64,000 bases of DNA from a virus. Taxonomy: Duplodnaviria > Caudoviricetes. How positions within the stretch are numbered: position 1 is the first letter of the stretch; every line of letters begins with the position of its first letter. The DNA lies in IMG/VR virus record IMGVR_UViG_3300008267_000012; one strand, 5' to 3'. Under the pieces are notes generated by a model. It worked only from the letters and a program-made list of their open reading frames with translations. It made no database searches and was not told where the DNA came from. A program made the translations under genes and the position numbers. Below are positions 3,012 to 63,713 of the stretch, piece by piece.

Positions 3012-3051
3012 TTTATAATAGTTTATTATAAATAGTTTTTAATTTCAAACT

Positions 3052-7907: not shown

Positions 7908-7932
7908 TTAAATGTATTTTATATAAATAGTT

Positions 7933-12367: not shown

Positions 12368-12567
12368 TAGAATTATTAATAAAATTTTTTGGTACATTTA
12401 TACCGAAATTTATGTTTTGTGGGTCAGTATTTTATTTTATCTACATTATGTATATTTTTTTTAGATGCATGAGAAGACAAGAAAAATTATCTGAATCTTT
12501 AACACAAAGAGAAAAACAATATTTTTATTTAGCAATAACTTATATATTTACATTTATTATTATATGA
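12364..12567 (+). CDS. Small membrane protein (two hydrophobic segments; possible holin-like)
   Basis: 67 aa with two hydrophobic stretches; ATGA-type overlaps with neighbours. Confidence 0.45.
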   Translation: MIELLIKFFGTFIPKFMFCGSVFYFIYIMYIFFRCMRRQEKLSESLTQREKQYFYLAITYIFTFIII

Positions 12568-13031
12568 AATTTAAAAAAATAATTGAAGAACTTAAAAACT
12601 ATATCGTTCAAATTAACTTTGACGATTTTGTTGATGTTTATATGTCATTTCCATCTGATTGGGATATGACCCCATTCTTTGAAGAGAATGAAGTTTACAT
12701 ATTAGAAAATCCTAAAAAAACTTTTGAGGATAATGGAAGACAATACAATATCTATCAGTTTCTTTTAAAATCTGTTGATTATACAGATGAGTTATTTAAT
12801 ATTCTAGTTCAAATAAAAAATACTTTTCTAGAAAGAGAAAAAATGATTTTTGAATTAAATCAAAAACTTGAACAAGAAAAGAAAGAACTTGAAGAAAGTA
12901 TTAATAAAAAAATTAATTCAATTCGTACTACTCCATCACCTAAAAAACCTAAGAATGAAATTGTGGAAAAGATTGAAGAAGTGAATGAATTAAAGAATAT
13001 AGATGATATTATGACTACTTATAGTAAATAA
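12564..13031 (+). CDS. Hypothetical protein with C-terminal coiled coil
   Basis: 155-aa ORF in operon. Confidence 0.55.
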   Translation: MKFKKIIEELKNYIVQINFDDFVDVYMSFPSDWDMTPFFEENEVYILENPKKTFEDNGRQYNIYQFLLKSVDYTDELFNILVQIKNTFLEREKMIFELNQKLEQEKKELEESINKKINSIRTTPSPKKPKNEIVEKIEEVNELKNIDDIMTTYSK

Positions 13032-37100: not shown

Positions 37101-37797
37101 ATCTCATGGTGATGTATCTATCAATAAAAAAACAGGAATGTATAATTCATATGTAATTACTGAAAGTGAATTAAAAAACAATCCTGATATGCTTGGTGAA
37201 TATAATGTTGCTCGTTATGTTAATAACTTTAATAAACGTGTAACTGCTTTATTAACTGTATTTCCTGAGAAAATAAGAGATACTTTAATAAAAGAAAAAC
37301 CAATGGATAGAGAGTATTATTCAGACAGCGAAATCCAATTAGCAAATTTTGATAGAGATTCTATTGAAGATTTCTTTTACTTAGAAGAAAAGGAAGTTAA
37401 GTTTTGGAACAGAACAGGACTTAGACCTGATGATATATTCAAAGATTTTAAATGTGATTATGAAATCAAATCAAATGAATATTATCAGAAATACTTTGAA
37501 ATAAAAGAAAAGATTAAAGGTTTAGGTATAACATCTAAACTAAAAATGCAACATCAAAGATATAAGAAAGAAGATATTATTCTTTTACTTAAAAAGGGTT
37601 ATACTATTGATAATTTAACCATTGATTTAGAATATAGTAAATATCTCTCTACTGAAAATGTTTACTTACCATTAAAAGGTTATAAAGATTTATATGCAAT
37701 ATATAAACAAACCAAATCAAAGAAAATTGTTGAATATAATAGATTCTTTATTGCTAAAATTATTGATAATAAATTAAATGTGCTTAATGAAGTTTAA
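34156..37797 (+). CDS. polB: Family B DNA polymerase with 3'-5' exonuclease
   Basis: ExoI FDIETTG, ExoII GYNSEDFDF, ExoIII YLEDD; polymerase motifs A DYAGLYPS, B KILNNSNFG, C EDTDG. Confidence 0.9.
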   Translation: MTIKEKITYKTFKDEEVERFLNGRNINQKHIVCIEGSSYSNVVQLVIDDPENNKKYIKSEEYKPFIYVKDLKKLGIPFYKDRKDEYRENMTKYGITFKKLKITDNNGAVVERLENGYTHIVYTDSIYGMRDLLAFFRHGGLDIYWKSTETFTTNLFTPDTKGGKPFVFDSNNDSILYNTVSENYEIIIRNVNKVVYNSIQIKYSGEFTEEKSDDEDNDNLDDLINEQPKITVQSNTLKKLALFHNYEIFHDESENVYRIIFKDKLIEGEKINIFYEIGNRNLFYTLKPEEQYLIQRGVRMFNGYKTYDEIHKLVFDIETTGLYPNKDRIFAIGCKDNRKFVSINFVNEMDNDEQEKQLIIKFFNIIKKLKPAIIFGYNSEDFDFNFILRRAEILGLDILTLTTTYTNDKTIKRIENSSLKVGNESKYYTKTSMFGYNVLDIIHAVWKTQAINSNMKEAGLKYVCKFAGIAKPNRMYVKNGAKIFQMWKEDKFYINKSETNEYELIPDEHQNDVISYLNTKPDYDKVITGSEIIEQYLEDDLWETLQVDKIYNESTFMLAKLLPTSLERTATIGGAGSWNLIMTAWSYENELAIPVTPNKRDFTGGLSRTFKVGYFENIYKEDYAGLYPSIQLEHYVFPKHDVTNILFRLLSYFKFTRDKYKKWAKDETLPESDRKFYDALQLPIKILNNSNFGAFGSEYFNWADFDCAERITCTGRQYLRRMIHYFMKFGAIPITEDTDGCNFSVPEYTNVDLDFNTLAIPIKIDDLRYEYEGITYKGVDAMVEKFNNEIIAGQYMKLDNDGMWISAANFSRKNYANLEYSTLEDKNKKKIFNIPKEYLSKEDEYLKEYAEKNSYLAEDTKNLKIKKSKPKVTGNTIKSKTMSEYIEDFVNQGIKLILTNKPKEFIEFYYEYLTKIYCKQIPIKKIASKSRLKQTVEEYQNRGTDINGKAKAKQAHMELVIANNINTSGMDFIYYVNNGTAKSHGDVSINKKTGMYNSYVITESELKNNPDMLGEYNVARYVNNFNKRVTALLTVFPEKIRDTLIKEKPMDREYYSDSEIQLANFDRDSIEDFFYLEEKEVKFWNRTGLRPDDIFKDFKCDYEIKSNEYYQKYFEIKEKIKGLGITSKLKMQHQRYKKEDIILLLKKGYTIDNLTIDLEYSKYLSTENVYLPLKGYKDLYAIYKQTKSKKIVEYNRFFIAKIIDNKLNVLNEV

Positions 37798-40700
37798 CCA
37801 CCAGGAAATTCAGCAAATGGATTATTATTAAAGAAATTTAAATTTTCTTCTATAATTTGTTTTTGTTCTTCTAGTTGTTGTTTCTCTAATTCTTCTTGTG
37901 TTATAAAATCAAGAGTATTAACATCACCTCTAAATGTAGATGGACCTATATTAGTTGTAGCATTTGTTGTTGCAATACCTGCAAATGTAGGAGGTTGAAA
38001 TGCTGGTAATGGTAATTTCGGTGTATTAATAGGTGGTGGTGTTGATTGTGGAGAATCAGCAGGTTTAGTTTTAACATTAGTTTTCTCTTCTCCACTACCC
38101 TTACCTTTATATTGATAACCTTCTTCTTTTCTAGAAGAAGTAAATCTAACATTCTTATTATATCTACCACTATTAAATGATGTATTAGCAATGAAGCTAG
38201 AATCACTAGCAGTTTGAATTCTATCAATTGGACCTGCAAGAGATTGACCACCAAGAAGAGTTAAATCCATTGTTACTGTACAGTATAATGGAATAACACC
38301 CATACCTTCAGGATTTAAATCCCAAGTTGATTCACTTATATCAAAGTTAATTGACCTTGCAATTGCTTTTGTATGTAAGAAATCACCATAGCGTAAAATA
38401 AACACAGGCATCCTACCAAACACAGTATTTTCAACATTATTGCTATTTCTTAATCTAGAAGGTCTTGTTAATTGATGTAAGAATACATAACGCTTTGTAA
38501 AATCAAATGGTGTTTGACTATTAAACACAGGGGTAAATGTGTTTAATCTTTCAAATCCCATTGGGAATTTATGTGTTTCTTCTATCTTTTCAAAATTTAA
38601 ATTTAATATTGGGTCATTGTTTTGACCTATTACTTTGCTAAAATCACCTTGTCTTATTTTATCTTGAGCGTCATCATTTAATTGTGGGTCAATTGCGGAT
38701 TCAGTATTTGGTGCATTTGCATTTTCACTAAATGTAACTTTAAAGCCTTTCATTTTTGCAAATCTATCGCTTATTTCGTTAGGGTCATTTCTTTTTTCAA
38801 ATGTAGAACCATTAGATAAACTATCACCTTTAGGTTTCAAATTAAAAACTAAAAGAATTTCATTTTGTGCATATATACCTAATTCATATTTTAATTGACC
38901 AGGAATAGGAAGTTCTTTACTATCAGTTGGTACAATATTATCTGGACTTATACTATCTATTGTATATGTTGCAACTGAATTATAAAAAGTTATAAATTCA
39001 GTCATAAATCCATAAGCCCTTGAAAAACTTAAATTTCTATTATAATTTCTTGCTTGAGTTGAACCTCTACTTTTTGAAGCAATTAAATCTGTTGAACTAC
39101 CTTCTATATCTATTTCTATTTTTTCTACACTACCTGAAGCAATTAATTCAATTAATTGGTCAGTAGCTGCCGATATAGTACTTAAAAATGATGCATTAAA
39201 TGCTAATGTTGTTGATGATAATAATGGATTTGGTATTGTACCGTTAGCATCTTTATTAAGTTCTGTACAACTATCTAAAACACTATAATCAACCGAAACA
39301 GTATCAGTATCATAATAACCATTCTTAAAAAAATATTGAACAGGTGCATTAATAAATTTAGTTTCTGCTTTCTGTTTTGTTACTTTATCATTTTGTGTCT
39401 TATCTGTTTCTTGTTTATTATTAATAAATGAATCAACATCAAATAAATAATTTCCACAATTATGTAAATATGCACGGTAATTTTCAAGCGTTGGTTTTAA
39501 ATCCTGCATTTCTTTAACTGTATCAATTAATAAACGAAATGTTAAACTTAAATTTCTTGTAGTATTTTGATATGAGAATATTGGTTCAGGTCTACCAAGA
39601 AAATTCATATCTGTCCAGTTCACAGTATTATTATCCGATATTTTTACATCATATGGTGGAAACCACATCCATCTTCCTCCATTTGGTCCTTGGTCACCAT
39701 CATCATCATTTGTAACTCTTACAGCTAAATTTTCCATAGTAAAGAAATGTCTGCGTCTATCATCTATTGTATCACCATCATATGGTGCTATTTTAGGTAA
39801 AACACTTTCCTTTAATACAGAATTCTTTTCATTATTACCATTAAATCTAATTAACTTACTAAAATTATCGTACTGTTGATAAACCGTAAATGTTCTACAT
39901 TCACCATTACCTTTATAATAAACTATATTTGTATCAACATCAGTATATAATTTTTTTGTATTTTGTGCAATAACTTTATTTTCTTCAGCAAGTTTTGAAG
40001 TAAAATAGATTAATCCTCTTTTAACTTTATGGTCATTTAATATTATTTCTTGCACAGCAGGGTCTGAATCATAAATAAAACTACCATCAGAATCAGCATA
40101 ATATTTTTGTCTTTCAGTAAATTGTCCTGAAGCATCATCTTTATTTTCAAAAATTACAGCCTTTTTTAAACCAATATTTTTTGTTTCATCAACTGGTTTA
40201 TTTGATAAAGTACCAAAACCTTGTCTCCCTTCTAAATTTTTTCTTTCTTGAATATAATCTTTTGTTAAACTTCCTGAAGGTTTTTCATATAATGTAAAAT
40301 AAGATTGCGTATAATATTCAATATCTTTAAATGTATAAAACTCAGTTAATCCTCTATTACCAGCATTTTCAAGATTTAACCACTCACTATCATATGTATT
40401 TTGAAATACTATTGATAATGAAGTCCTATCAGTTATCCAAGGATTTTGAGAATATGTAGAAAAAGTATTTAAATAACCTGTTCTTCTTATTTTATCTTGA
40501 ATTAATTTTCCTGAATAATAAAAATATATATCTGATGAATATTTATATTCAGATACATTTGAATCAGCAGCAAAATTTAATAAATAATTTTCATTACTTC
40601 TATATCCAATTGTTCCTTCTAAAGCCCTATCAGAAAATGTTCTATTTGGGTTTTTATTTGCGTCAGTTATATTTGCATCATGTTTTTTAAAACTACCCTC

Positions 40701-41015
40701 AAAATCAACTGAAAAATCATTTGGTTTTGGAATAAACCCATCAAACATATTATATACGGACCTTCTACCAAATTCTTCCAATAATCTAGTAGCACCAATT
40801 TGTAATAATTGACTATTTTTTGCATCAACCAATCTTTCTACAACATTTAATATTGTATTATTTCTATAGTCAAATCCTGTTATCCTATTTAATAAATCAA
40901 TACTCCTAGTAACAATATCACTACTCAAATCATATGGAGAATCAATTTTATATAAATTACCTTTTAATTGGTTATCTCTCTGTCCTTCTCCTGTTATAGT
41001 AATTGGTGTTGGCAT
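37794..41015 (-). CDS. Baseplate/tube-initiator-like protein with internal OmpA-like domain
   Basis: Two gp48/gp54-type segments (FLGRPEPIFSYQNTTRNLSLTF; FGRMPVFILRYGDFLHTK...TVTMDLTLLGG) flank IEGSSTD...YNRNLSFSRA. Confidence 0.55.
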   Translation of the reverse strand: MPTPITITGEGQRDNQLKGNLYKIDSPYDLSSDIVTRSIDLLNRITGFDYRNNTILNVVERLVDAKNSQLLQIGATRLLEEFGRRSVYNMFDGFIPKPNDFSVDFEGSFKKHDANITDANKNPNRTFSDRALEGTIGYRSNENYLLNFAADSNVSEYKYSSDIYFYYSGKLIQDKIRRTGYLNTFSTYSQNPWITDRTSLSIVFQNTYDSEWLNLENAGNRGLTEFYTFKDIEYYTQSYFTLYEKPSGSLTKDYIQERKNLEGRQGFGTLSNKPVDETKNIGLKKAVIFENKDDASGQFTERQKYYADSDGSFIYDSDPAVQEIILNDHKVKRGLIYFTSKLAEENKVIAQNTKKLYTDVDTNIVYYKGNGECRTFTVYQQYDNFSKLIRFNGNNEKNSVLKESVLPKIAPYDGDTIDDRRRHFFTMENLAVRVTNDDDGDQGPNGGRWMWFPPYDVKISDNNTVNWTDMNFLGRPEPIFSYQNTTRNLSLTFRLLIDTVKEMQDLKPTLENYRAYLHNCGNYLFDVDSFINNKQETDKTQNDKVTKQKAETKFINAPVQYFFKNGYYDTDTVSVDYSVLDSCTELNKDANGTIPNPLLSSTTLAFNASFLSTISAATDQLIELIASGSVEKIEIDIEGSSTDLIASKSRGSTQARNYNRNLSFSRAYGFMTEFITFYNSVATYTIDSISPDNIVPTDSKELPIPGQLKYELGIYAQNEILLVFNLKPKGDSLSNGSTFEKRNDPNEISDRFAKMKGFKVTFSENANAPNTESAIDPQLNDDAQDKIRQGDFSKVIGQNNDPILNLNFEKIEETHKFPMGFERLNTFTPVFNSQTPFDFTKRYVFLHQLTRPSRLRNSNNVENTVFGRMPVFILRYGDFLHTKAIARSINFDISESTWDLNPEGMGVIPLYCTVTMDLTLLGGQSLAGPIDRIQTASDSSFIANTSFNSGRYNKNVRFTSSRKEEGYQYKGKGSGEEKTNVKTKPADSPQSTPPPINTPKLPLPAFQPPTFAGIATTNATTNIGPSTFRGDVNTLDFITQEELEKQQLEEQKQIIEENLNFFNNNPFAEFPGG

Positions 41016-54513: not shown

Positions 54514-54639
54514 AACGAAAAATTATATAAAAAATTTTTTAACACACAATCTATTTTGGAGTTGAAAAGTTGTGCAGGAATTTTTTACAAAATTTTTTTC
54601 TAATTGTAAACTAATTTTTGTAGCCGATACATCCATGCT

Positions 54640-54720
54640 GCCCCCACATCTATGGGAGGGGGGTGGGTGGGCTGTGTTATAGGGGGGTACAGAGGGGGGT
54701 ATGCCCAGGGGGGTCTCCCT
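54640..54720 (+). other. G-rich tract with G-quadruplex potential
   Basis: GGGAGGGGGGTGGGTGGG followed by three further runs of six G in an otherwise AT-rich genome. Confidence 0.6.
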
Positions 54721-55000
54721 GACATTTCCAAATCTTTTTTCAACTTTTTCTTACATCAATCTTACATTAGGACTTTTCCCATATCGGTTAGGACTAATCC
54801 AGTATTGTACTTTGCCCAGGCGACATAGGACAAAACAATGAATGCGATTTAAGGCATCTGCAAGGCTCTACAATGAACGCAAGGTTCAAATGGTATCTGA
54901 ACCTCACCCGAAACTTTGCGTTGATTGTAGGCTGTGTTGCGCTTGAATTAGGGCATAAAAAAAGGGAGGCTTTCACCTCCCTTGTTTTGCCGTTCCGTGC

Positions 55001-55795
55001 TTAGAAAATTTCACGGAGGGCTTTCACATTGCATAGGGCTTGCAAGCGGTCATCGGCAAGCATCCGCTTCTTTTGGACATAGTACGCATTGCGGTTCAGC
55101 CACCCCTGAAGAACGCAAGCATCTGCGGTAGGTAGTGGCGAAACCTCCACCTCAATCATCCGTTCAAAGGTCTGCCAAAACCTGCGGTCTGCATTGTTAT
55201 CGGCAAGGTTGAACAAGTGGCGCACCTCTTTTTGGAGGTCAATTTCCACCTTTGACTTTGAGGCAAGTGCCATTGCCCTCTCCACCTGCGGATTAACCAT
55301 TTCGTTGTTATCATCATCGGCAACGAAGAGGCTGATGATAGCCTTAGTCTTTGAATTGCCACCTTTCTTTGCGCCATTCTGAACGCATTGGATTGAGGCT
55401 TTCAGCCAAAGCCTCCAAAAGCGACCTTGCGTAAGTGGTTCACCATTGTAGGTGAAATCTGCGTGGCTGAACCGCAAGATACCCTTTTTCTTGGTCGGGG
55501 TAATGAGGCGAAGGTATGCCTCTTGTGCAAAGTCTTCAGCGGTCTTTGCGGTAAACCTCTGACCGATACCCAAAAATGGGTATTTTCGGATAAGCATAAA
55601 GGCAATGCCTTTTGCCATAAGTTGCGCCCTTTTATTGAACCCTTTCGGGGTCATCGGGCAAACATCCATTCTCTTTACGAACTTGCAAAGAGAGATAACA
55701 CGAACCTTTTTAGGGGTGTTATCAGATGAAACAGATACAGAAGGAGTAGTGGCAACCCCGTTGCTAACTACTGAAGAAGTGATTTGATTTTTCAT
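55001..55795 (-). CDS. Putative ECF-like sigma factor / transcription regulator (GC-rich gene)
   Basis: TAEDFAQEAYLRL...FWRLWL resembles sigma region 2; C-terminal helical HTH-like segment; start set at ATG 55795 (GATATTTG-N4-ATG). Confidence 0.5.
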   Translation of the reverse strand: MKNQITSSVVSNGVATTPSVSVSSDNTPKKVRVISLCKFVKRMDVCPMTPKGFNKRAQLMAKGIAFMLIRKYPFLGIGQRFTAKTAEDFAQEAYLRLITPTKKKGILRFSHADFTYNGEPLTQGRFWRLWLKASIQCVQNGAKKGGNSKTKAIISLFVADDDNNEMVNPQVERAMALASKSKVEIDLQKEVRHLFNLADNNADRRFWQTFERMIEVEVSPLPTADACVLQGWLNRNAYYVQKKRMLADDRLQALCNVKALREIF

Positions 55796-55799
55796 AATG

Positions 55800-55832
55800 C
55801 AAATATCGGCATAAGAAGTAATACACTCCAAA
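55800..55832 (-). promoter_or_regulatory. Bacteroidota sigma-A-type promoter candidate
   Basis: Minus strand TTTG-N21-GATATTTG-CATT-ATG; same N4 geometry as four TATATTTG-N4-ATG sites elsewhere in the window. Confidence 0.5.
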
Positions 55833-55863
55833 TCTGACACAAAAATAAATTTAAAATAAACCC

Positions 55864-56147
55864 TAACTCATTGATAATCAGCGAGAAAAAAGTTGAAAAT
55901 TTTTGTAAGAAATCATAACTCACTGAAAATCAGCGACTTGAACCAGGCAATGGTATATGAACTGCGTGAGGTGTGCGTATGCGTGTGTGCGTGTATGAAA
56001 CAAAATAAATGAAACAAAAAAATTTATTTGCTGTACTGAACTAATAGACCATAGGACAAAACCAAGATTTGAATCAGAACTCGTTGAAAACCAGGCACTT
56101 AGGTCTTAATTTAGGTAGTAACCATAACTGACTGATAATCAGCGACT
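55864..56147. repeat. Four imperfect palindromic AACT-N3-TGA-N-AA(T/C)CAG repeats (IHF-site-like)
   Basis: Copies at 55864, 55916, 56078 and 56125; the 55916 copy contains AATCAGCGACTTG, matching WATCARN4TTR. Confidence 0.6.
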
Positions 56148-56457
56148 TCCTTTGTATTCGCATAACTATTTTTTTTGGTATCAGAGTACCAAAAAGGCAC
56201 ATCGTGTCTTATACGCAATGTTATGAGGCTGAAAACGCATTCTAATAACGCTGGTAAGGTTACCAAAAAACTTGGTAGAAAATAAATTTGGAAATATGGA
56301 AAATGGTATTCTGAAAAATGGGAAAAATGCCTTAGTCAAAATAATTGAGAAAAGCAAGGAATTGAAAAAATAAAATTATTTTCAAATAATTTTGGTAATG
56401 TCAAAAATCCTCCACTGGCCTGGCCCTGGCGCAAGGTGAAAAAATTTTCAGATTTTT

Positions 56458-56487
56458 TGTAAGATTTGAGAGGTGAGTTCATATACT
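56458..56487 (+). promoter_or_regulatory. Cassette promoter motif (non-coding transcript)
   Basis: TGTAAGA-N17-TATACT, not followed by ATG. Confidence 0.7.
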
Positions 56488-56492
56488 ATACT

Positions 56493-56592
56493 AAGACAAA
56501 AGCATTACTGCTTTGCAGGTATGTTTCTTTCTTATCCATTTGGTTTTTACACTTTTATAGAAAATCCCTTTGAAATTCAGAGGGATTTTTTT
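56493..56592 (+). ncRNA. Candidate small RNA
   Basis: Flanked by a cassette promoter and the hairpin AATCCCT..AGGGATT plus T-run; 5' hairpin AAAGCA-TTAC-TGCTTT. Confidence 0.45.
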
Positions 56593-56617
56593 TTATTCTT
56601 TTTTTAATAAAAAAGAA

Positions 56618-56664
56618 GAAGCCCGAACCAAGGGAAGGTTAATCGCAGGTAGTTCGCCCAAACT
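56618..56664 (+). repeat. 47-bp conserved element, copy A
   Basis: GAAGCCCGAACCAAGGGAAGGTTAATCGCAGGTAGTTCGCCCAAACT. Confidence 0.9.
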
Positions 56665-56722
56665 TTTTTAAAATAAATTAAAAATAAAAAAAGGCAATCA
56701 CTCCCGATTGCCTTTCCCGAAC

Positions 56723-56956
56723 TTACTTGCACATTGCTTTCAGTTCCGCTTTTATCTCCTTGGCTTTCTCACCTCTCCAAGAGGAAGCATTGCCAAGGAA
56801 GTAAAGAACGATTGACTTTCCCGAATCCCAACCATAATCCTGGTTTACGGAATCCATTTGCGCCATTGCATCCAAATAAGGCTTGGCTGCAAAATTGATG
56901 TTTTTCCAATCCTTCCTAACCTCGGAAGCGATTTGGCTTAGTGTTCTTGTTGTCAT
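56723..56956 (-). CDS. Small early-type hypothetical protein
   Basis: MTTRTLSQIASEVRKDW...AKPYLDAM...YFLGNASSWRG; ATG abuts the promoter motif. Confidence 0.7.
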   Translation of the reverse strand: MTTRTLSQIASEVRKDWKNINFAAKPYLDAMAQMDSVNQDYGWDSGKSIVLYFLGNASSWRGEKAKEIKAELKAMCK

Positions 56957-56961
56957 AATAT

Positions 56962-56991
56962 AGTATATGAATTGAGGTGTCATATCTTACA
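56962..56991 (-). promoter_or_regulatory. Cassette promoter (leaderless geometry)
   Basis: TGTAAGA-N17-TATACT-ATATT-ATG. Confidence 0.75.
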
Positions 56992-57013
56992 TTTTATTTT
57001 AAAATAAATTTTA

Positions 57014-57183
57014 ACAATGTCAATGTATATACAATGTAGTGGTTCTGACAATGTTAATGTATATACAATGTATGACTTTCTGTATTGTGTGTTATTTTAC
57101 ATTGTTTGCCTTTTGACAATGTAGGAACAATGTCAGGACAATGTAGGCTTATACACAATGTTATGAGAATGTTTTGACATTGT
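57014..57183. repeat. ACAATGT heptamer array
   Basis: ACAATGT at 57014, 57031, 57048, 57065, 57116, 57127, 57138, 57155; inverted ACATTGT at 57099 and 57177. Confidence 0.8.
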
Positions 57184-57193
57184 TGAAAAAGAA

Positions 57194-57223
57194 TGTAAGA
57201 TATTGACATTGAGTTCATATATT
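57194..57223 (+). promoter_or_regulatory. Cassette promoter preceding 47-nt element copy B
   Basis: TGTAAGA-N17-TATATT. Confidence 0.7.
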
Positions 57224-57228
57224 ATAAT

Positions 57229-57293
57229 GTAAACAAGATTGTTACAGAAGCCCGAACCAAGGGAAGGTTAATCGCAGGTAGTTCGCCCAAACT
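57229..57293 (+). ncRNA. Candidate small RNA: 5' hairpin plus 47-nt element copy B (57247-57293)
   Basis: Copy B is identical to copy A; preceded by hairpin TGTAAAC-AAGATT-GTTACA. Confidence 0.55.
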
Positions 57294-57325
57294 GAACTAT
57301 AAAATATATGAATAAAAAAAGTCAA

Positions 57326-57682
57326 TCAGAAATGATTGACTTTAAGTGTCACACTCTTTGGTTTCCAATTCAAACCCCAAAAAAAGCCACCGAAACACCC
57401 TGTTTGATTGTATTTATATATATCATACATAAGTATGTCTACAATTCCTTTTGCATACTCTATACCTACATATTCCCCAATTACTTGTCTGATTTGGAAA
57501 AAAGTAGTTTCCTCTTCTAAGTATTCTTGAAAAATATAGGGCAAATACTTCTTCAGTTGTTCTAAATCAGTAGACATTCCTTCTTCAGTAAGCCAATTGT
57601 CTATATACTCCCATAACCCTGATATGGATTGGAAAGCAACGCTTGAAGTACAAGTTGTGTTTACATTAGGATAATTTTCCAT
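57326..57682 (-). CDS. Early-type hypothetical protein
   Basis: 118 aa; own promoter (57713-57742) and terminator hairpin (57318-57343). Confidence 0.65.
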   Translation of the reverse strand: MENYPNVNTTCTSSVAFQSISGLWEYIDNWLTEEGMSTDLEQLKKYLPYIFQEYLEEETTFFQIRQVIGEYVGIEYAKGIVDILMYDIYKYNQTGCFGGFFWGLNWKPKSVTLKVNHF

Positions 57683-57712
57683 TTTATTTTTTTTTAGTGT
57701 TTGTTGTAATAT

Positions 57713-57742
57713 AGTATATGAACTGACCTTACAAATCTTACA
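57713..57742 (-). promoter_or_regulatory. Cassette promoter (short A-rich leader)
   Basis: TGTAAGA-N17-TATACT. Confidence 0.75.
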
Positions 57743-57762
57743 TAAATTTTTATTTTATTTTT

Positions 57763-57792
57763 TGTAAGATATTTGATATGAGTTCATATATT
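57763..57792 (+). promoter_or_regulatory. Cassette promoter preceding 47-nt element copy C
   Basis: TGTAAGA-N17-TATATT, back-to-back with the 57713 promoter. Confidence 0.7.
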
Positions 57793-57797
57793 ATATG

Positions 57798-57864
57798 GCA
57801 AACCACCTGGGTTTGCGGAAGCCCGAACCAAGGGAAGGTTAATCGCCTGTAACTTGTCCAAACT
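57798..57864 (+). ncRNA. Candidate small RNA: 5' hairpin plus 47-nt element copy C (57818-57864)
   Basis: Hairpin GCAAACC-ACCTG-GGTTTGC, then GAAGCCCGAACCAAGGGAAGGTTAATCGCCTGTAACTTGTCCAAACT. Confidence 0.55.
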
Positions 57865-57918
57865 GAAATGATAAAAAAAATTAAATAAAAAAAGGGAAGA
57901 TTTCTCTTCCCTTAGTTA

Positions 57919-58296
57919 TCAGATGAAATCTGATTTCTCTTGATACTTCTTGAAGGCAAAATCAGCACTTGGTGTATCGCCATTGAGAACGATAAGACCT
58001 GTTACCTTGGTTCTGCCTTGACCAAACTTGGCTTCCCAAATGAAAGCAGTTGCTTCCAAGATTTGGGTGTTGGTTGAATCAGTACCCATCCAAACACGGC
58101 ATTCATAAATGCCATCTTTTTCAGGTGCATCTCCAAACCACTTGAACTTATCCCAACCTCCAAATGAAGAGGCTTTGGATTCAAGTTCTCCGTGCAAGTA
58201 CACCCAAGGTGTGTACGATAAAACCTCTTCTTTGAAAGGCAGAAGAGCATTTCCTGATTCCATCAATGTTGGAACGATAGTGTGTAAGTGTGTCAT
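57919..58296 (-). CDS. Early-type hypothetical protein
   Basis: 125 aa; leaderless geometry with promoter 58302-58331. Confidence 0.65.
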   Translation of the reverse strand: MTHLHTIVPTLMESGNALLPFKEEVLSYTPWVYLHGELESKASSFGGWDKFKWFGDAPEKDGIYECRVWMGTDSTNTQILEATAFIWEAKFGQGRTKVTGLIVLNGDTPSADFAFKKYQEKSDFI

Positions 58297-58301
58297 AATA
58301 T

Positions 58302-58331
58302 AGTATATGAATTGAGATACGAAATCTTACA
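58302..58331 (-). promoter_or_regulatory. Cassette promoter (leaderless geometry)
   Basis: TGTAAGA-N17-TATACT-ATATT-ATG. Confidence 0.75.
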
Positions 58332-58355
58332 TTTTATTTTAAAAAAAAACAATCT

Positions 58356-58410
58356 ACAATGTCTTGCACAATGTCTTGTACAATGTCAATAAAAAAGGGG
58401 AACACAATGT
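58356..58410. repeat. Second ACAATGT cluster
   Basis: Copies at 58356, 58368 and 58380 (12-bp period) and at 58404 in a terminator loop. Confidence 0.7.
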
Positions 58411-58427
58411 TTCCCCTTTGAAGATTG

Positions 58428-58847
58428 TTACTTTGCTCTGCAAACTGGTCCAAAGCCAATGCTGATTGAATCAGCATCAGTCAGAGGTCTTCCGCACCTT
58501 AGACATTTGCCTAAGTGCATTACCTCCACTTGGTCAGCAACTGCTTGATGATTACCAAGTTGAATATTGTGGAGAATCCACGCAATCCCTTTGGCTGAAG
58601 GTGTATCAACCTCTTGACCTTTACGGACAACCTTGCCATCTTTAAAGAAGCCAAGATACAACCATTCAAGATAGTTGGTTTCCACTTTGATGTGGGTGTA
58701 CCATTTATCATTGAACTGCTTGCGACTTACCTTGTAGGTGAAGTCTTTACCACTTCTCTTTGAGAGTGCGGTGAACTCACCACCATTGGATTGAGTATCA
58801 CCTTGAATAAGAGAAAGAAGTGCGGAGGTAGGAACTAAATTTTTCAT
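58428..58847 (-). CDS. DUF6011-like zinc-binding protein
   Basis: C-terminal GKCLRCGRPLTDADSISIGFGPVC. Confidence 0.7.
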   Translation of the reverse strand: MKNLVPTSALLSLIQGDTQSNGGEFTALSKRSGKDFTYKVSRKQFNDKWYTHIKVETNYLEWLYLGFFKDGKVVRKGQEVDTPSAKGIAWILHNIQLGNHQAVADQVEVMHLGKCLRCGRPLTDADSISIGFGPVCRAK

Positions 58848-58870
58848 AGTGTTATTGTTTATTGTAATAT

Positions 58871-58900
58871 ACTATATGAACTCAGTTGCGAAATCTTACA
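58871..58900 (-). promoter_or_regulatory. Cassette promoter (variant)
   Basis: TGTAAGA-N17-TATAGT. Confidence 0.7.
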
Positions 58901-58978
58901 TTTTATTTTAAAATAAAAAAACCCTACCGATATAACCGATAGGGTTTCCAAGAAAAACCAATAAACACCCAAATACAA

Positions 58979-59143
58979 TCAATCCCAATTTTTTCGCTTC
59001 TGTGCGTTTCTATTATACTTTTTGGAATCCTTACCTACCTTAGTGGTAAATCTTGAATCACCATTGGTATCACGCAGATACATATCTCTTTTTATCTTCC
59101 CATAGTTAATGGGAGAAGTTGTTGTTGTTGCTGAAGTTTTCAT
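58979..59143 (-). CDS. 54-aa basic protein (not in ORF track)
   Basis: MKTSATTTTSPINYGKIKRDMYLRDTNGDSRFTTKVGKDSKKYNRNAQKRKNWD; own promoter variant and downstream terminator. Confidence 0.6.
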   Translation of the reverse strand: MKTSATTTTSPINYGKIKRDMYLRDTNGDSRFTTKVGKDSKKYNRNAQKRKNWD

Positions 59144-59148
59144 ACTTA

Positions 59149-59178
59149 TATATATGAACTCAAGTGCTAAAACTTACA
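59149..59178 (-). promoter_or_regulatory. Cassette promoter (variant, leaderless geometry)
   Basis: TGTAAGT-N17-TATATA-TAAGT-ATG. Confidence 0.6.
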
Positions 59179-59517
59179 AATAAATTTAATTCTTTTCTCT
59201 TGTGCCTTTTCGTATTGAATATCACTAAGCCAAGAAGTAGCCAAAGCAGATACACCGATACCTAACGGAATAAAAATCATTGGATTACCATTATCTTCTT
59301 TTTTATAGATGTGGTAAGAAGCGACTGCTGAAACAAAAGCAGCGACTTGTAAAACCTTAGAAGTACCTTCCAATATCTTTGCCTTCTGCAAATGGAGATT
59401 AATTTCCTTACGGACTGAATCCCTCTTTTGGCGGTACATAATGGTTTTGTAGTTAGTTTGCCCCATAACCGATGAGGCAAACAAACAAAGTACCGAAACA
59501 ATGATTATCTTCTGCAT
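59167..59517 (-). CDS. Exported/membrane protein
   Basis: Signal peptide MQKIIIVSVLCLFASSVMG|Q plus two hydrophobic segments. Confidence 0.6.
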   Translation of the reverse strand: MQKIIIVSVLCLFASSVMGQTNYKTIMYRQKRDSVRKEINLHLQKAKILEGTSKVLQVAAFVSAVASYHIYKKEDNGNPMIFIPLGIGVSALATSWLSDIQYEKAQEKRIKFICKF

Positions 59518-59717
59518 TCCCTTACGATTTTAAATTTATTCGTACCATTGATAGGGAATACCACTTCACCAACCTTGAACTCTCTATCCACCTTAATCTT
59601 GTGTGTGGTGATAGTATCGCCATCTACACGATGAGCAATAACCATTTTGGTTGTGCTTTCTATGCAAGAGGTCATCATCCCGATAACAACTGCCAATGTC
59701 AATAATCTTGTTTTCAT
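59505..59717 (-). CDS. Putative lipoprotein
   Basis: MKTRLLTLAVVIGMMTSC lipobox-like; ATG abuts the promoter. Confidence 0.6.
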   Translation of the reverse strand: MKTRLLTLAVVIGMMTSCIESTTKMVIAHRVDGDTITTHKIKVDREFKVGEVVFPINGTNKFKIVRECRR

Positions 59718-59722
59718 AATAT

Positions 59723-59752
59723 AGTATATGAATTGAAGTGTCAAATCTTACA
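59723..59752 (-). promoter_or_regulatory. Cassette promoter (leaderless geometry)
   Basis: TGTAAGA-N17-TATACT-ATATT-ATG. Confidence 0.75.
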
Positions 59753-59759
59753 ATTTATT

Positions 59760-59984
59760 TTATTTCTTTTCTACAAGAACCCAATTATGTTGGGCAGTAT
59801 GAATCACAATGGCTTGATGCTTCTTTCCATCAAAGCCAACATATTCCAATGTTTTTTGTGATGCTTCATGAGGTTCAAGAGGTTTATCTTTTGAATTTGA
59901 ATGCTCAACAAAAGCACATATTACCGCAGTAAACATAATTGCAAACAATGCAACTATTGCTACTTTATAATAATTATCTTTCAT
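59760..59984 (-). CDS. Small membrane protein
   Basis: MKDNYYKVAIVALFAIMFTAVICAFV...; start overlaps the upstream stop (ATGA). Confidence 0.55.
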   Translation of the reverse strand: MKDNYYKVAIVALFAIMFTAVICAFVEHSNSKDKPLEPHEASQKTLEYVGFDGKKHQAIVIHTAQHNWVLVEKK

Positions 59985-60106
59985 AACCCAATTGTTAAAA
60001 TTAATAACCGACAAATGATAATGAAAAGTGAAAAGGAAATACCCAATACCACGATAACATCAAAGACCATATTTAGCCTTCTCTGTTGCTTATAAAAATC
60101 TTCCAT
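59981..60106 (-). CDS. 41-aa membrane protein (not in ORF track)
   Basis: MEDFYKQQRRLNMVFDVIVVLGISFSLFIIICRLLILTIGL; fits exactly between its neighbours. Confidence 0.5.
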   Translation of the reverse strand: MEDFYKQQRRLNMVFDVIVVLGISFSLFIIICRLLILTIGL

Positions 60107-60107
60107 A

Positions 60108-60347
60108 TTATTTCATTGTACTAAAACCATTTGAACAAACTATTCTATCTGAGGCATACAATTTTTCTTGAAAACCAGCCTTGCGGATTTCTTCAACTTC
60201 TTTGGTAGACATACCACCTTCTGAAATAGGCGCATCCAATAAGACCTTTGCAAATCCAACGAACAAGCCAAAACTTTTTCTATAAGCATCTGCAAGAATT
60301 TCCTTTTGCAAATTTTTCGGGAGAGATAATAACATTTCTTTAATCAT
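60108..60347 (-). CDS. Early-type hypothetical protein
   Basis: Start reassigned to ATG 60347 after the A-rich leader of promoter 60372-60401. Confidence 0.6.
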   Translation of the reverse strand: MIKEMLLSLPKNLQKEILADAYRKSFGLFVGFAKVLLDAPISEGGMSTKEVEEIRKAGFQEKLYASDRIVCSNGFSTMK

Positions 60348-60371
60348 TTTTTTATTGTTTTGATGTAATAT

Positions 60372-60401
60372 AGTATATGAACTCAATGCTGAAATCTTAC
60401 A
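60372..60401 (-). promoter_or_regulatory. Cassette promoter (short leader)
   Basis: TGTAAGA-N17-TATACT. Confidence 0.75.
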
Positions 60402-60465
60402 ATTTATTTTAAAATAAAAAAACCCTCTGCCATTTCTGACAAGAGGGTTCTATGAACAACAAACA

Positions 60466-60768
60466 CTAAACTTTCAATAACCTTTGAATCAAATCAGTTA
60501 TTTCATTTCTGTTTTGATAATACAGAATATCATCATTTTCACTAAGTTGAATCCATTCGTGTCCTTCTTTGTACCAAGCAGCAACCTCAAAGGTATGGAT
60601 ACCATCACCACCTAATCTTGGTTGATGTTCGGTTGGAAAGCCACCGATAACGGAAATGATTACCCCATTGGGTAATTCGTGCATTGAAGCAACCAAACCC
60701 TGACCTCCTGGATGAACCCCAAATACGAGGTCATCAAATGAACTTATTTCTTTCTTACAGATTTCCAT
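60466..60768 (-). CDS. Early-type hypothetical protein
   Basis: 100 aa; own promoter and terminator. Confidence 0.65.
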   Translation of the reverse strand: MEICKKEISSFDDLVFGVHPGGQGLVASMHELPNGVIISVIGGFPTEHQPRLGGDGIHTFEVAAWYKEGHEWIQLSENDDILYYQNRNEITDLIQRLLKV

Positions 60769-60791
60769 TTCTTAAATGTTTATTGTAATAT

Positions 60792-60821
60792 AGTATATGA
60801 ATTGAAGTGTCAAATCTTACA
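60792..60821 (-). promoter_or_regulatory. Cassette promoter (short leader)
   Basis: TGTAAGA-N17-TATACT; leader AATAAACATTTAAGAA identical to that of the 61199 promoter. Confidence 0.75.
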
Positions 60822-60866
60822 ATTTATTTTAAAATAAAAAAAGGGAGTATTTCTACTCCCTTAATT

Positions 60867-61175
60867 TTACTTTACAAGAAAGTCAAAACCACCAACCTTT
60901 CCCACATTCCGACCATTGATACCAAGTATTCGGCAAATCAATGCACCTAACTTTTTGGTTCTCATATTGGCGATGAGAGAACCTTGCCACTTCCCTTCAG
61001 TTTCAACTGAGGGTGAAAAGTTAAGTGACCCGACTTCACGAATAAGCCATTGGTCATCTAACCTATGCTTTTCTCTAAACTTAGAGATTTCCCCTAAGAT
61101 GAAAAGATGTGTACCTTTGGGAGTTTCAACGATTAAATCCCATTTGCCTTTTGACTCAAAGATGTATGCAACCAT
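60867..61175 (-). CDS. Early-type hypothetical protein
   Basis: 102 aa; own promoter and terminator. Confidence 0.65.
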   Translation of the reverse strand: MVAYIFESKGKWDLIVETPKGTHLFILGEISKFREKHRLDDQWLIREVGSLNFSPSVETEGKWQGSLIANMRTKKLGALICRILGINGRNVGKVGGFDFLVK

Positions 61176-61198
61176 TTCTTAAATGTTTATTGTAATAT

Positions 61199-61228
61199 AG
61201 TATATGAACTCACCTTACAAATCTTACA
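61199..61228 (-). promoter_or_regulatory. Cassette promoter (short leader)
   Basis: TGTAAGA-N17-TATACT. Confidence 0.75.
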
Positions 61229-61248
61229 TAAAATTTTATTTTATTTTT

Positions 61249-61278
61249 TGTAAGATATAAGACTTGAATTCATATATT
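61249..61278 (+). promoter_or_regulatory. Cassette promoter preceding 47-nt element copy D
   Basis: TGTAAGA-N17-TATATT, back-to-back with the 61199 promoter. Confidence 0.7.
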
Positions 61279-61283
61279 AAGGT

Positions 61284-61341
61284 GTAGCAATACAGAAGCC
61301 CGATTCAAGGGAAGGTTTATCGCCTGTAACTTGCCCATACT
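61284..61341 (+). ncRNA. Candidate small RNA: 5' GNRA hairpin plus 47-nt element copy D (61295-61341)
   Basis: TGTA-GCAA-TACA, then GAAGCCCGATTCAAGGGAAGGTTTATCGCCTGTAACTTGCCCATACT and a T-run. Confidence 0.55.
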
Positions 61342-61370
61342 TTTTTTAGATATGGGCAAAAAAAAGAGGG

Positions 61371-61643
61371 TTAATACCCTCTCTCTTTCTTGTACTTCTC
61401 TTGCACCTTTTCAAGTTGCGCCAACGCATCCTTGTTGCTCCTTGCAGTCAGACCATAGTAGTCTTTAATCTGCTTGGCAGTTATGCCCTTGAATAGCATT
61501 CCCTTTGAAAGGATTTTCATTTGGAAGATGTGGGTGTTCAACTGATAGCCAAAGTAATCAATTTCCTTATCACCCATACTTACTTTCGGTGTTTGCAGTT
61601 CTCCCGACCTTGCAGAAGCAACTGCTTGTTCAAATTGTGTCAT
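61371..61643 (-). CDS. Early-type hypothetical protein
   Basis: Start reassigned to ATG 61643 abutting the promoter. Confidence 0.65.
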   Translation of the reverse strand: MTQFEQAVASARSGELQTPKVSMGDKEIDYFGYQLNTHIFQMKILSKGMLFKGITAKQIKDYYGLTARSNKDALAQLEKVQEKYKKERGY

Positions 61644-61648
61644 AATAT

Positions 61649-61678
61649 AGTATATGAATTCACTTGCCAAATCTTACA
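61649..61678 (-). promoter_or_regulatory. Cassette promoter (leaderless geometry)
   Basis: TGTAAGA-N17-TATACT-ATATT-ATG. Confidence 0.75.
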
Positions 61679-61719
61679 TTTTATTTAAAAAAAAAGGGAG
61701 TATTTCTACTCCCTCTCTT

Positions 61720-62604
61720 TTAGACAAGTGCAACTCCCTTTCTTTCAGCGACTTCCGTAAGGAATGAAAGAGCATCGGTGTTGAACTTCATATTACCACC
61801 CAACAGATTGCCGTAGGTATCGGTAGAAGATTTGGTGTGTGTGGTGTAGTGTGTTACACCATTGAAAGCACCCCAAAGATTCATACCCAAATCCGCAGTT
61901 TCTCTGTTCAGAGAATCCATCAAAGCCACCTTAGTATTACCCTTTCTTACAGAAAGAATATCACCTTCAGCAATCTTTGTTTCATCAATGTTCAGAAGCC
62001 TATTGGCAAGGGCATCAAGAATAGACCTATCAATCTTGATTTCAGACATTTTCTGAAAGATGATTGCCTCTTGTTCCTTTTCAGCACGGAAGCCACGAAC
62101 AAGGTCAATAAACATATCCACCTTGTAGTTGTGGTTCTTCGTGTGCCGAACCTTCAACCCTTGCATCACCCGACCCCATTGGTTGAAACAACGAAGCAAG
62201 ATGTTTACACTACCAACGAAAAGTGGTGTAGTGCCATCGTGTGAATTACCAAATACAAGGTAGTTCTCACTTTTCAGACCAAGATACTGATGCACAAGGT
62301 CATCGGTTGCTTTCAGATAGGCAAGTACCTTAGTACCGCCACGAAATTCAGCGAACCCTTCAAGTTCGTAACCCGAAGCATCAGCAAGTTGCCTTGCGTG
62401 TTCTTCAAAGGTTCGGTTCTTTGTTTCCGTATATGAATCACGGAACAAACTCAATGTTTCCAAAGTATCACTCCTTTTCAGAGCAACATATCTTTCTTCG
62501 GGAACGAACAGACCACTTTTTGTTTGTGTGTAAGGTGTGTGTCTTTCCACCTCCCAACCAAGGCTTTCCTTGAAATCCTTGACTGCATTTGATTTGCTTG
62601 TCAT
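61720..62604 (-). CDS. DUF932-family protein
   Basis: GGTKVLAYLK, YLVFGNSHDGTT, LRCFNQ, VRHT, NLWGAFNGVTHYTTH motifs. Confidence 0.78.
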   Translation of the reverse strand: MTSKSNAVKDFKESLGWEVERHTPYTQTKSGLFVPEERYVALKRSDTLETLSLFRDSYTETKNRTFEEHARQLADASGYELEGFAEFRGGTKVLAYLKATDDLVHQYLGLKSENYLVFGNSHDGTTPLFVGSVNILLRCFNQWGRVMQGLKVRHTKNHNYKVDMFIDLVRGFRAEKEQEAIIFQKMSEIKIDRSILDALANRLLNIDETKIAEGDILSVRKGNTKVALMDSLNRETADLGMNLWGAFNGVTHYTTHTKSSTDTYGNLLGGNMKFNTDALSFLTEVAERKGVALV

Positions 62605-62609
62605 AATAT

Positions 62610-62639
62610 AGTATATGAATTGAGATACGAAATCTTACA
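62610..62639 (-). promoter_or_regulatory. Cassette promoter (leaderless geometry)
   Basis: TGTAAGA-N17-TATACT-ATATT-ATG. Confidence 0.75.
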
Positions 62640-62690
62640 ATTTATTTTAAAAAAAAGGGAGAAATTTCTTCTCCCTTGATTTTCAGTTAC

Positions 62691-63188
62691 TTACTCACCA
62701 ATCTTAATGATATTGCTTTCTTTGGGGCAAATCACCATAGACTGCTTAGTTAGTTTCTCTGCATCAGAGGCGGTCAGATACTTTTTGAATGTATCTTCCT
62801 GCACCTGAATACCATCTACCATAAAGGTATAGGTAATTTCGCAGTTATCCGTAGGGTATAGTCTGATATACCTTTGTTCCTCCGTTTCGTTTTTTGGAGT
62901 ATGCAAAATGGTATATGGGAAATGCTCCCAACGACCCCAAGGGAGTGAACCAACCTCACCTCTTGTTCCATCGGCAATGCCTTCAAGAACAGGTTTGAGG
63001 TTTGCGTAATTGATACCTGCCCTAAACACACCTTTGGTATGCTTGGTCAGTTTTTTTCCTTTGAAAGCCTTAGATGGCTTAACATCGGAAATGAACTCTG
63101 CTGAAAGGAATTGACCTTTGCAGGTAAAGAAACGGCTTGCCACTCCCGACAGACCGCTTGGCACTTGTAATTGAGAGGTATTACTCAT
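62691..63188 (-). CDS. Early-type hypothetical protein
   Basis: 165 aa; own promoter and terminator. Confidence 0.65.
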   Translation of the reverse strand: MSNTSQLQVPSGLSGVASRFFTCKGQFLSAEFISDVKPSKAFKGKKLTKHTKGVFRAGINYANLKPVLEGIADGTRGEVGSLPWGRWEHFPYTILHTPKNETEEQRYIRLYPTDNCEITYTFMVDGIQVQEDTFKKYLTASDAEKLTKQSMVICPKESNIIKIGE

Positions 63189-63193
63189 AATAT

Positions 63194-63223
63194 AGTATAT
63201 GATTTCACTTGCGAAATCTTACA
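63194..63223 (-). promoter_or_regulatory. Cassette promoter (leaderless geometry)
   Basis: TGTAAGA-N17-TATACT-ATATT-ATG. Confidence 0.75.
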
Positions 63224-63270
63224 AAAATAAATAAAAAAAGGGAGAAATTTCTTCCTCCCTTGATTTTCAG

Positions 63271-63660
63271 TTAGTTACTCTCAGAATGTTCTTGAACAAT
63301 CTCCATTCGGGTTTCGTGTTCCTCTTTAAGGTCTGTAATAGCATCCTTAATGAGGTCTAAAACATTCCTTTTCTGCTCATAAGCATTAACCTCAAAATCA
63401 TCAAGTTTAATGGTATTACCATAACTAATTTCAAATGATTCATTTGAGATTTCAAAGTTGCTTGCATCATCAAAGTCATAGCAATCAAGAACATCAATAA
63501 TCTTATCCCTAACTAAGTTAAGAATAGCAATGAAATCTTGCTTTGACTCTTCCACCTTCGGTTCTTCTGAAACCATATTTAAGGTGTTTACAACATCATC
63601 TTTGGTGAAGAGGCTTCCAAGCGAATCTTGCACCTTTGCGATTACTTCTTGTTTTTTCAT
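63271..63660 (-). CDS. Early-type acidic hypothetical protein
   Basis: Start reassigned to ATG 63660 after an A-rich leader. Confidence 0.65.
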   Translation of the reverse strand: MKKQEVIAKVQDSLGSLFTKDDVVNTLNMVSEEPKVEESKQDFIAILNLVRDKIIDVLDCYDFDDASNFEISNESFEISYGNTIKLDDFEVNAYEQKRNVLDLIKDAITDLKEEHETRMEIVQEHSESN

Positions 63661-63683
63661 TTTATTTATTTTGTTTGTGATAT

Positions 63684-63713
63684 AGTATATGAACTCGTTG
63701 TTCAAATCTTACA
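63684..63713 (-). promoter_or_regulatory. Cassette promoter (short leader)
   Basis: TGTAAGA-N17-TATACT. Confidence 0.75.

Follow-up and report, generated by a model that had tools for sequence, protein, structure and literature searches.

In a 64,000-nt stretch of DNA from a tailed phage (Caudoviricetes; the whole stretch is called the window below), the gene adjoining an array of small genes probably encodes a divergent RNA polymerase factor of sigma type, which the host enzyme would make early; judging by gene, promoter and protein models together, we would put the chance of this at about two in three. In the mechanism that we propose, host holoenzyme would transcribe the sigma-like gene early, from a promoter of Bacteroidota type, into a leaderless mRNA ending at the gene's own terminator. 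The product would be a very divergent sigma-type subunit for host RNA polymerase, with an N-terminal sigma-2 fold docking on the beta-prime clamp helices, as is common to all sigma-70-family proteins, and with promoter contacts coming from a conserved aromatic loop plus helix (FTY...F.RLW..A..Q) and from a C-terminal helix-turn-helix-like domain. We infer that such a protein would direct initiation at a phage promoter class, for which the array promoters are one candidate among others, since two further genes of this phage code for ordinary sigma factors.

Many phages are known to encode sigma factors, and the primary sigma of Bacteroidota reads an unusual −33/−7 promoter; to our knowledge, almost nothing is known about how Bacteroidota phages program transcription. 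The window carries genes for tail sheath, major head protein, head protease, portal, large terminase, DNA polymerase, ThyX and endolysin, together with three tRNAs. Terminase, portal, capsid and sheath mark the phage as T4-like, the terminase being nearest to those of Flavobacterium myophages (29% identity) and then to those of T4-like phages. A search of sequencing runs found near-identical DNA only in freshwater and lake metagenomes; all runs carrying the phage were DNA runs and none was an RNA run.

The gene, its base composition and its promoter

The sigma-like gene is a minus-strand ORF encoding 264 aa (ATG at 55795-55793, stop at 55001-55003), and its translation contains both peptide strings quoted in the earlier note, TAEDFAQEAYLRL and FWRLWL. 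A GTG start at 55840, adding 15 residues, was considered and rejected; that stretch is the promoter. The gene has its own intrinsic terminator (Table 1) and is therefore a separate transcription unit.

The G+C content of the gene is 47.3% (GC3 52%) versus 29.1% elsewhere in the window, so that the richness in G+C remarked on earlier is real, and the 800-nt stretch with the highest G+C of the whole window (48.2%, ∼4 s.d. over the mean) falls on it. The array genes have 33-43% G+C, as against 23% and 20% in two further sigma genes of the phage, one RpoD-like and one ECF-like (described below). Homologues in four diverged, syntenic lineages are each richer in G+C than their own flanks, and for this reason recent horizontal transfer was rejected as the sole cause of the high G+C.

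Upstream of the gene, the minus strand reads TTTG, 21 nt, GATATTTG, CATT and ATG, exactly the arrangement that had been claimed as a host-type promoter. The Bacteroidota primary sigma reads TTTG/TAnnTTTG; in the Flavobacterium johnsoniae −7 box the positions T−12, A−11, T−8, T−7, T−6 and G−5 are conserved, and transcripts begin 4-5 nt past the box (PMC6847099). A start at this distance would fall here on the A of the ATG, and the mRNA is therefore predicted to be leaderless. When the upstream regions of five diverged loci, including the window, were aligned, an exact TAnnTTTG was seen at the aligned place in L001, L004, L007 and L010, and a TTG ∼20 nt upstream of the −7 box was kept throughout. 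The string ATATTTG-N4-ATG occurs six times in the window, with 0.65 occurrences expected, and five of the six copies lie at ORF starts (thyX, a phosphoesterase gene, two small genes and the sigma-like gene); this excess and placement put the sigma-like gene in a real class of host-type leaderless promoters. The promoter motif of the array cassettes is absent before the gene, as the earlier note had said: GTCAGATTTG, found there, resembles the array's GTAAGATTTG but is not followed by TATAYT 17 nt on. Elsewhere in the window, a perfect host-type box with ATG (ATATTTGCATCATG, 40669-40682, plus strand) lies inside and antisense to the gene for a 1073-aa protein (37794-41015), and could belong to an antisense transcript or a small ORF.

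Table 1. Positions in the window of the sigma-like gene, its domains and signals, and of the array and late-type boxes
Feature	Coordinates	Strand	Basis or remark
Sigma-like CDS, stop codon included	55001..55795	−	ORF; 14 close and ∼7 distant homologues
Sigma-2-like domain (predicted), residues ∼35-145	55361..55693	−	AF2 model; VIA matches to ECF sigma-2 domains
C-terminal helical, helix-turn-helix-like domain (predicted), residues ∼185-258	55022..55243	−	Domain model, pLDDT 82.7 (folded alone)
−7 box GATATTTG	55800..55807	−	One mismatch to Bacteroidota consensus TAnnTTTG; 4 nt before ATG
−33 element TTTG	55829..55832	−	21 nt 5′ of −7 box
Intrinsic terminator of sigma-like gene	54962..54983	−	9-bp stem, then T run; just 3′ of stop
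Array: small genes and small RNAs under GTAAGA-N17-TATAYT promoters	56458..63713	.	Candidate target of the sigma-like protein
CTATTTATA upstream of genes starting 3011(−), 15394(−), 20786(−), 28081(+), 42888(+)	within 246-53750
CTATTTATA upstream of genes starting 46234(−), 47940(−), 41015(−), 53481(−), 53728(+)	within 246-53750

Modelled fold, core interface and protein family

The AlphaFold (AF2) model built on the family alignment has a middling whole-protein pLDDT of 66, with values of 72-84 in the helices of the sigma-2-like domain. In an exhaustive structural comparison by VIA, the best match to residues 35-144 was SigC of Mycobacterium tuberculosis (2o7g_B; Z 6.1, rmsd 3.2, 83 of 89 residues aligned); Z-scores of 5-6 fall in the range that the tool calls common for helical domains. 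Sigma factors make up 12 of the 20 top matches, nearly all aligned through their sigma-2 domain; besides SigC they are SigH, BldN, CnrH, RpoE, ShbA, SigW, SigJ, SigL, E. coli sigma-E, SigK and AlgU. Made on a predicted model and with modest Z values, this comparison supports a sigma-2 fold at moderate strength. In a Foldseek search of the AlphaFold database about half of the top 30 matches were sigma-70-family proteins, most of them aligned over nearly the whole length (E 0.04-0.5), and the top match in the PDB was chain F of the phiEco32 gp79-dependent open complex (E 0.13). By language-model features, Sigma70_r2 was the sole named family among 100 Atlas neighbours; a search of the Atlas by shape was uninformative. 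Singly these fold and language-model results are not strong; they agree with one another in pointing to sigma-2 likeness. Within the modelled domain a beta-hairpin of ∼24 residues (99-122) is inserted after a DAEDxxQE-like helix and before the FWRLWLKASIQ helix, and the invariant residues F114, T115, Y116 and G118 lie on it.

In holoenzyme structures, sigma region 2.1-2.2 docks primarily on the clamp coiled coil of beta-prime. A complex model of the sigma-like protein with residues 1-420 of F. johnsoniae beta-prime was run three times and scored 0.78 each time, whereas none of three controls rose above 0.00; the score mark is reached by 58 of 80 solved complexes and by two of 110 mismatched pairs, counts that are rough here as a custom alignment was used. 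The modelled interface joins beta-prime residues 272-319 and 338-346 to residues 50-99 and 150-175 of the sigma-like protein, which places docking of region 2.1-2.2 on the clamp coiled coil in silico only. It may be that the model passes through likeness to solved sigma-core complexes, and we take it to support that likeness and not binding by this particular copy. Together, the sigma-2 fold and the modelled clamp-helix interface speak for the description of the protein as sigma-like.

For the C-terminal domain the best fold match was the DNA-binding domain of NtrC4 (Z 5.6, rmsd 4.0, 63 of 68 residues), sigma-4 domains gave weak matches (TM 0.37-0.50, E ≥ 4), and Foldseek with this domain returned nothing significant. 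The domain thus appears helix-turn-helix-like but not clearly sigma-4, and the fold check proposed earlier, for sigma-2 and sigma-4 with the protein alone and with core, came out as expected in the models for the first domain and for clamp docking, while for the second it gave the weak sigma-4 matches just named. Conservation falls on F126, W130 and Q136 in the region-2.3/2.4-like helix and on K242, R244, D248 and R250 in the C-terminal domain, where K242, R244 and R250 lie in the putative recognition helix.

By sequence the family looks like an orphan, new with respect to known phage sigmas. A search of 5.8 billion proteins gave 14 clusters at E < 1e-35, and an exhaustive profile-free search of 1.8 billion proteins gave 10 family representatives; in all the family has ∼20 clusters (14 close and ∼7 distant homologues), to which a profile search added no further members, and no member carries a Pfam domain. 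For 21 family members Pfam gave no match at E up to 10, including PF04542 (region 2) and PF04545/PF08281 (region 4), and neither PHROGs nor NCBIfam gave a match. A sequence search of the PDB returned chance matches only, tblastn against 50,697 phage records returned nothing, and no locus turned up when the family alignment was used to scan IMG/VR, JGI metagenome contigs and GTDB genomes. Comparisons by hhalign with RpoE, with an RpoE alignment (whose homologue search gave near-identical proteins only), with 28 diverse RpoD-like proteins and with the phage's own two sigmas were never significant (P 0.06-0.8). The short alignments that were returned always lay on topologically equivalent segments, residues 66-99 being paired with RpoE 23-59, i.e. 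region 2.1-2.2.

Promoter classes, relatives and the choice of sigma

The phage has three promoter classes: host-type, cassette-type and T4-late-like. Class 1 is the host-type TTTG/TAnnTTTG found before the sigma-like gene. Class 2, GTAAGA-N17-TATAYT, is present in 17 copies in 56.4-63.7 kb (13 on the minus and four on the plus strand, variants included), precedes nearly every small array gene as well as small plus-strand RNAs, and often has ATATT-ATG directly 3′ of it. Its stricter form, TGTAAGA with TATACT after 15-19 nt, occurs 12 times in the window versus 0.03 expected, all in 56.4-63.7 kb and all with a gap of 17 nt. Class 3, CTATTTATA, lies 10-25 nt upstream of the sheath gene and of head-related, lysis and other genes, and resembles the T4 late box as read on the opposite strand.

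Several conserved elements accompany the array and the sigma-like gene. The plus-strand cassette-type promoters at 56459, 57195, 57764 and 61250 head short non-coding units with a common core, CAGAAGCCCGA..., also found in L001, L004 and L007. Clusters of the heptamer ACAATGT stand before some cassettes (57009-57072 in the window, and upstream of the genes at 4996 and 7732 in L012) and so are kept even in the distant L012 lineage. Just past the terminator of the sigma-like gene, tandem GTAAGA boxes (54754-54770) are followed by a C-rich non-coding stretch (43% G+C; the whole at 54540-54770, minus strand); the arrangement is kept in L001, L004 and L007, and in L012 the boxes are upstream of the sigma-like gene. 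Rfam gave no match for this stretch, and over 53-64 kb only sub-threshold chance matches. Between the sigma-like gene and the array, a gap of 600 nt holds four copies (55865-56148) of a repeat of 23-25 nt, AAGTCGCTGATTTTCAGTGAGTTAT, inside which lies a CTGA...TCAG palindrome; an extra copy lies at the 3′ end of a DUF932-like gene (61732-61754), and the repeat is kept in related loci (L001:2000-2024). A CA/CG-rich low-complexity tract, CACGCACACACGCATACGC..., occupies 55960-56000 and is conserved at the corresponding position in L001 and L007. This tract and the surrounding repeats give the gap the look of an origin or of some other region bound by proteins.

In all five lineages the sigma-like gene adjoins the small-gene array. 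In L001, L004 and L007, where its homologues have 30-49% identity, the gene is again last, downstream of a co-directional array that includes DUF932 and DUF6011 proteins; in L012 (∼25% identity) it is convergent to a similar array. The cassette promoters persist in altered form: GTAAGA...GATATATTA in L001 and L004, GTTAGA...GATATATTA in L007 and GTAAGA...CATATACTA in the window. In the L012 cassettes (L012:4300-14224) a long conserved upstream element, TTTGTTATTATTTGAAAT, which is shared with the L012 sigma-like gene, is followed after ∼8 nt by the host-type TATATTTG or TACATTTG. Counted from the upstream TTG, the L012 promoters read TTG-N22-TAnnTTTG and those of class 2 T(T/A)G-N22-TATAYTAW; the geometry is equal, which suggests that class 2 derives from the host-type promoter by changes in the last four positions of the −7 box, T−7 alone surviving among them. 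Comparison of boxes and recognition helices in four lineages (GTAAGA versus GTTAGA, CATATACT versus GATATATT) gave no interpretable pattern of co-variation, the independent lineages being too few.

A contig that encodes exactly the same sheath protein, L015, equals window 246-13011 over its first 12,766 bases and extends 10 kb beyond. Its sigma block (L015:17959-20319) lies ∼5.2-7.6 kb before the first base of the window and holds the genes for an RpoD-like sigma (L015:19459-20301, minus strand) and an ECF-like sigma (L015:17959-18480, minus strand), with a primase gene between them. The first of these is an RpoD/RpoS-like protein of 280 aa with a canonical region 2.3-2.4 that reads GYKFSTYAIWWIKQSIL, melting residues YAIWWIKQ and a full region 4.2 departing from the canonical TRERIRQ; the ECF-like protein, of 173 aa, matches the SigM subfamily (1.6e-11). 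A TATATTTG box stands before the first gene of the block, and further TAnnTTTG boxes precede each sigma gene. The phage genome thus has at least three sigma-type genes, one of them invisible to sequence annotation.

The earlier note had tentatively assigned the array to the sigma-like protein, as the factor specific for the GTAAGA-N17-TATAYT promoters of the array and of the small RNAs; this is possible, though we find it somewhat unlikely. Constant adjacency to the array in five lineages, the raised G+C that gene and array have in common, a host-type promoter that would make the protein available first, the fit of a two-domain protein to a two-box promoter of fixed spacing, and array boxes that are of non-host type in four lineages all suggest it. 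However, the same genome encodes the RpoD-like sigma, with YAIWWIKQ and a full region 4.2, and the ECF-like one, both behind host-type −7 boxes; TATAYT at a spacing of 17 nt is sigma-70 geometry, such as is expected of a sigma-70-type factor; the L012 array, with its TAnnTTTG boxes, seemingly needs no special sigma and yet the sigma-like gene is kept; and boxes and recognition helices do not co-vary interpretably. It is possible, and by a small margin likelier, that the RpoD-like phage sigma (less likely the ECF-like one) reads the array, which would leave to the sigma-like protein a regulon that is different, smaller or unrecognised. Matches of the RpoD-like protein are to NCBIfam RpoD/SigA (9e-46) and phrog_351; as its region 4.2 is unlike TRERIRQ, a −35 box other than TTGACA, such as GTAAGA, is expected of it; and the equal geometry of class 2 (T-T/A-G, 22 nt, TATAYTAW) and of the L012 host-type promoters (TTG, 22 nt, TAnnTTTG) makes the array promoters look like modified primary-sigma promoters. 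The conserved non-coding elements flanking the sigma-like gene could then be that protein's own targets; it would still need a role, for which these elements are candidates. This division of labour has against it that the window contains no second promoter class assignable to the sigma-like protein and that the RpoD-like gene lies ∼60 kb from the array, with a G+C of 23% like that of the core genome. The two-step cascade of the earlier note is accordingly plausible for the phage, with more than one of its sigma-type proteins a candidate for running it.

Readings in which the protein is no initiation factor fare worse. As a sigma mimic, it would occupy the clamp helices and shut off or modulate host transcription while reading no promoters, which we consider distinctly improbable: the modelled interface is the sigma docking site, early expression is predicted from the host-type promoter, and the C-terminal domain is not clearly sigma-4, but the conservation of the aromatic and basic residues F126, W130, Q136, K242, R244 and R250 suggests nucleic-acid contacts under selection. 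It also seems improbable that the protein works apart from RNA polymerase, as a DNA-binding regulator of helix-turn-helix type or as a factor for replication or partition, with the flanking repeats as its site of action; sequence homology to sigma factors was not found, the C-terminal domain is best matched by an NtrC/Fis-type DNA-binding domain, and conserved repeats flank the gene on both sides (the GTAAGA boxes and the four 23-25-nt copies described above), but sigma-2 domains dominate the fold matches of the N-terminal part and the complex model passes where its controls score 0.00.

A divergent sigma-type factor remains the reading that we favour. A further suggestion, which we hold to be unlikely, is that in the G+C-rich module formed by the sigma-like gene and the array transcription has been handed from the host primary sigma to a phage factor, L012 keeping TAnnTTTG and the clade of the window having TATAYTAW read by the sigma-like protein. 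Were it true, a sigma lineage that is an orphan by sequence and has a beta-hairpin as its specificity loop would be taking over an early regulon, and the takeover would have been caught in a phage with three sigma-type genes.

Comparison with known sigma factors

With the ECF sigmas (group 4; M. tuberculosis SigC, SigH and SigL, E. coli RpoE) the sigma-like protein shares a two-domain layout, a similar size, the predicted N-terminal sigma-2 fold and the order of motifs, a DAEDxxQE-like helix and then an aromatic helix. It differs from them in having no significant profile match, in its 35-residue disordered N-terminal tail, in the ∼24-residue beta-hairpin at the position where ECF sigmas have a short specificity loop, and in a C-terminal domain that fold searches place nearer to Fis/NtrC-type helix-turn-helix domains than to sigma-4. 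The likeness to T4 lies in the structural genes of the phage and in the T4-late-like single box CTATTTATA before its late genes. Sigmas of the T4 gp55 type consist of a single sigma-2-like domain, whereas the sigma-like protein has a second domain, and it has no PHROG match to gp55 families; we therefore do not place it in this type.

The closest circuits are those of Salmonella phage 7-11, whose sigma SaPh711_gp47 reads the bipartite late promoters GTAAtg-(16)-aCTA, and of coliphage phiEco32 with the comparable gp36; these divergent sigma-70-family proteins bind the host core and read phage promoters after early promoters have been served by the host sigma (PMC8948821, PMC12276001). A phage-encoded sigma under a host promoter is thus a known kind of circuit (PMC8948821, PMC12276001), and the present phage resembles it in encoding a divergent sigma-type protein, for which the phiEco32 open-complex chain F was the top Foldseek match in the PDB. 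In contrast, the phiEco32 and 7-11 sigmas are recognisable by sequence and were tested in vitro, whereas sequence does not betray the present family as sigmas and its likeness to them is modelled; their hosts are enterobacteria, and the host promoters here are of the Bacteroidota −33/−7 type; and, unlike those phages as described, this one carries at least two further sigma genes. What appears to be new is an orphan family with a predicted hairpin insertion in sigma-2 and a C-terminal domain not clearly sigma-4; new also are the Bacteroidota host and the coexistence with at least two ordinary phage sigmas. If it is a working sigma, the protein extends the known sequence space of the sigma family, and the phage, with its short leaderless cassettes under identical promoters, offers a tractable system in which to ask how one host core is shared by several phage sigmas.
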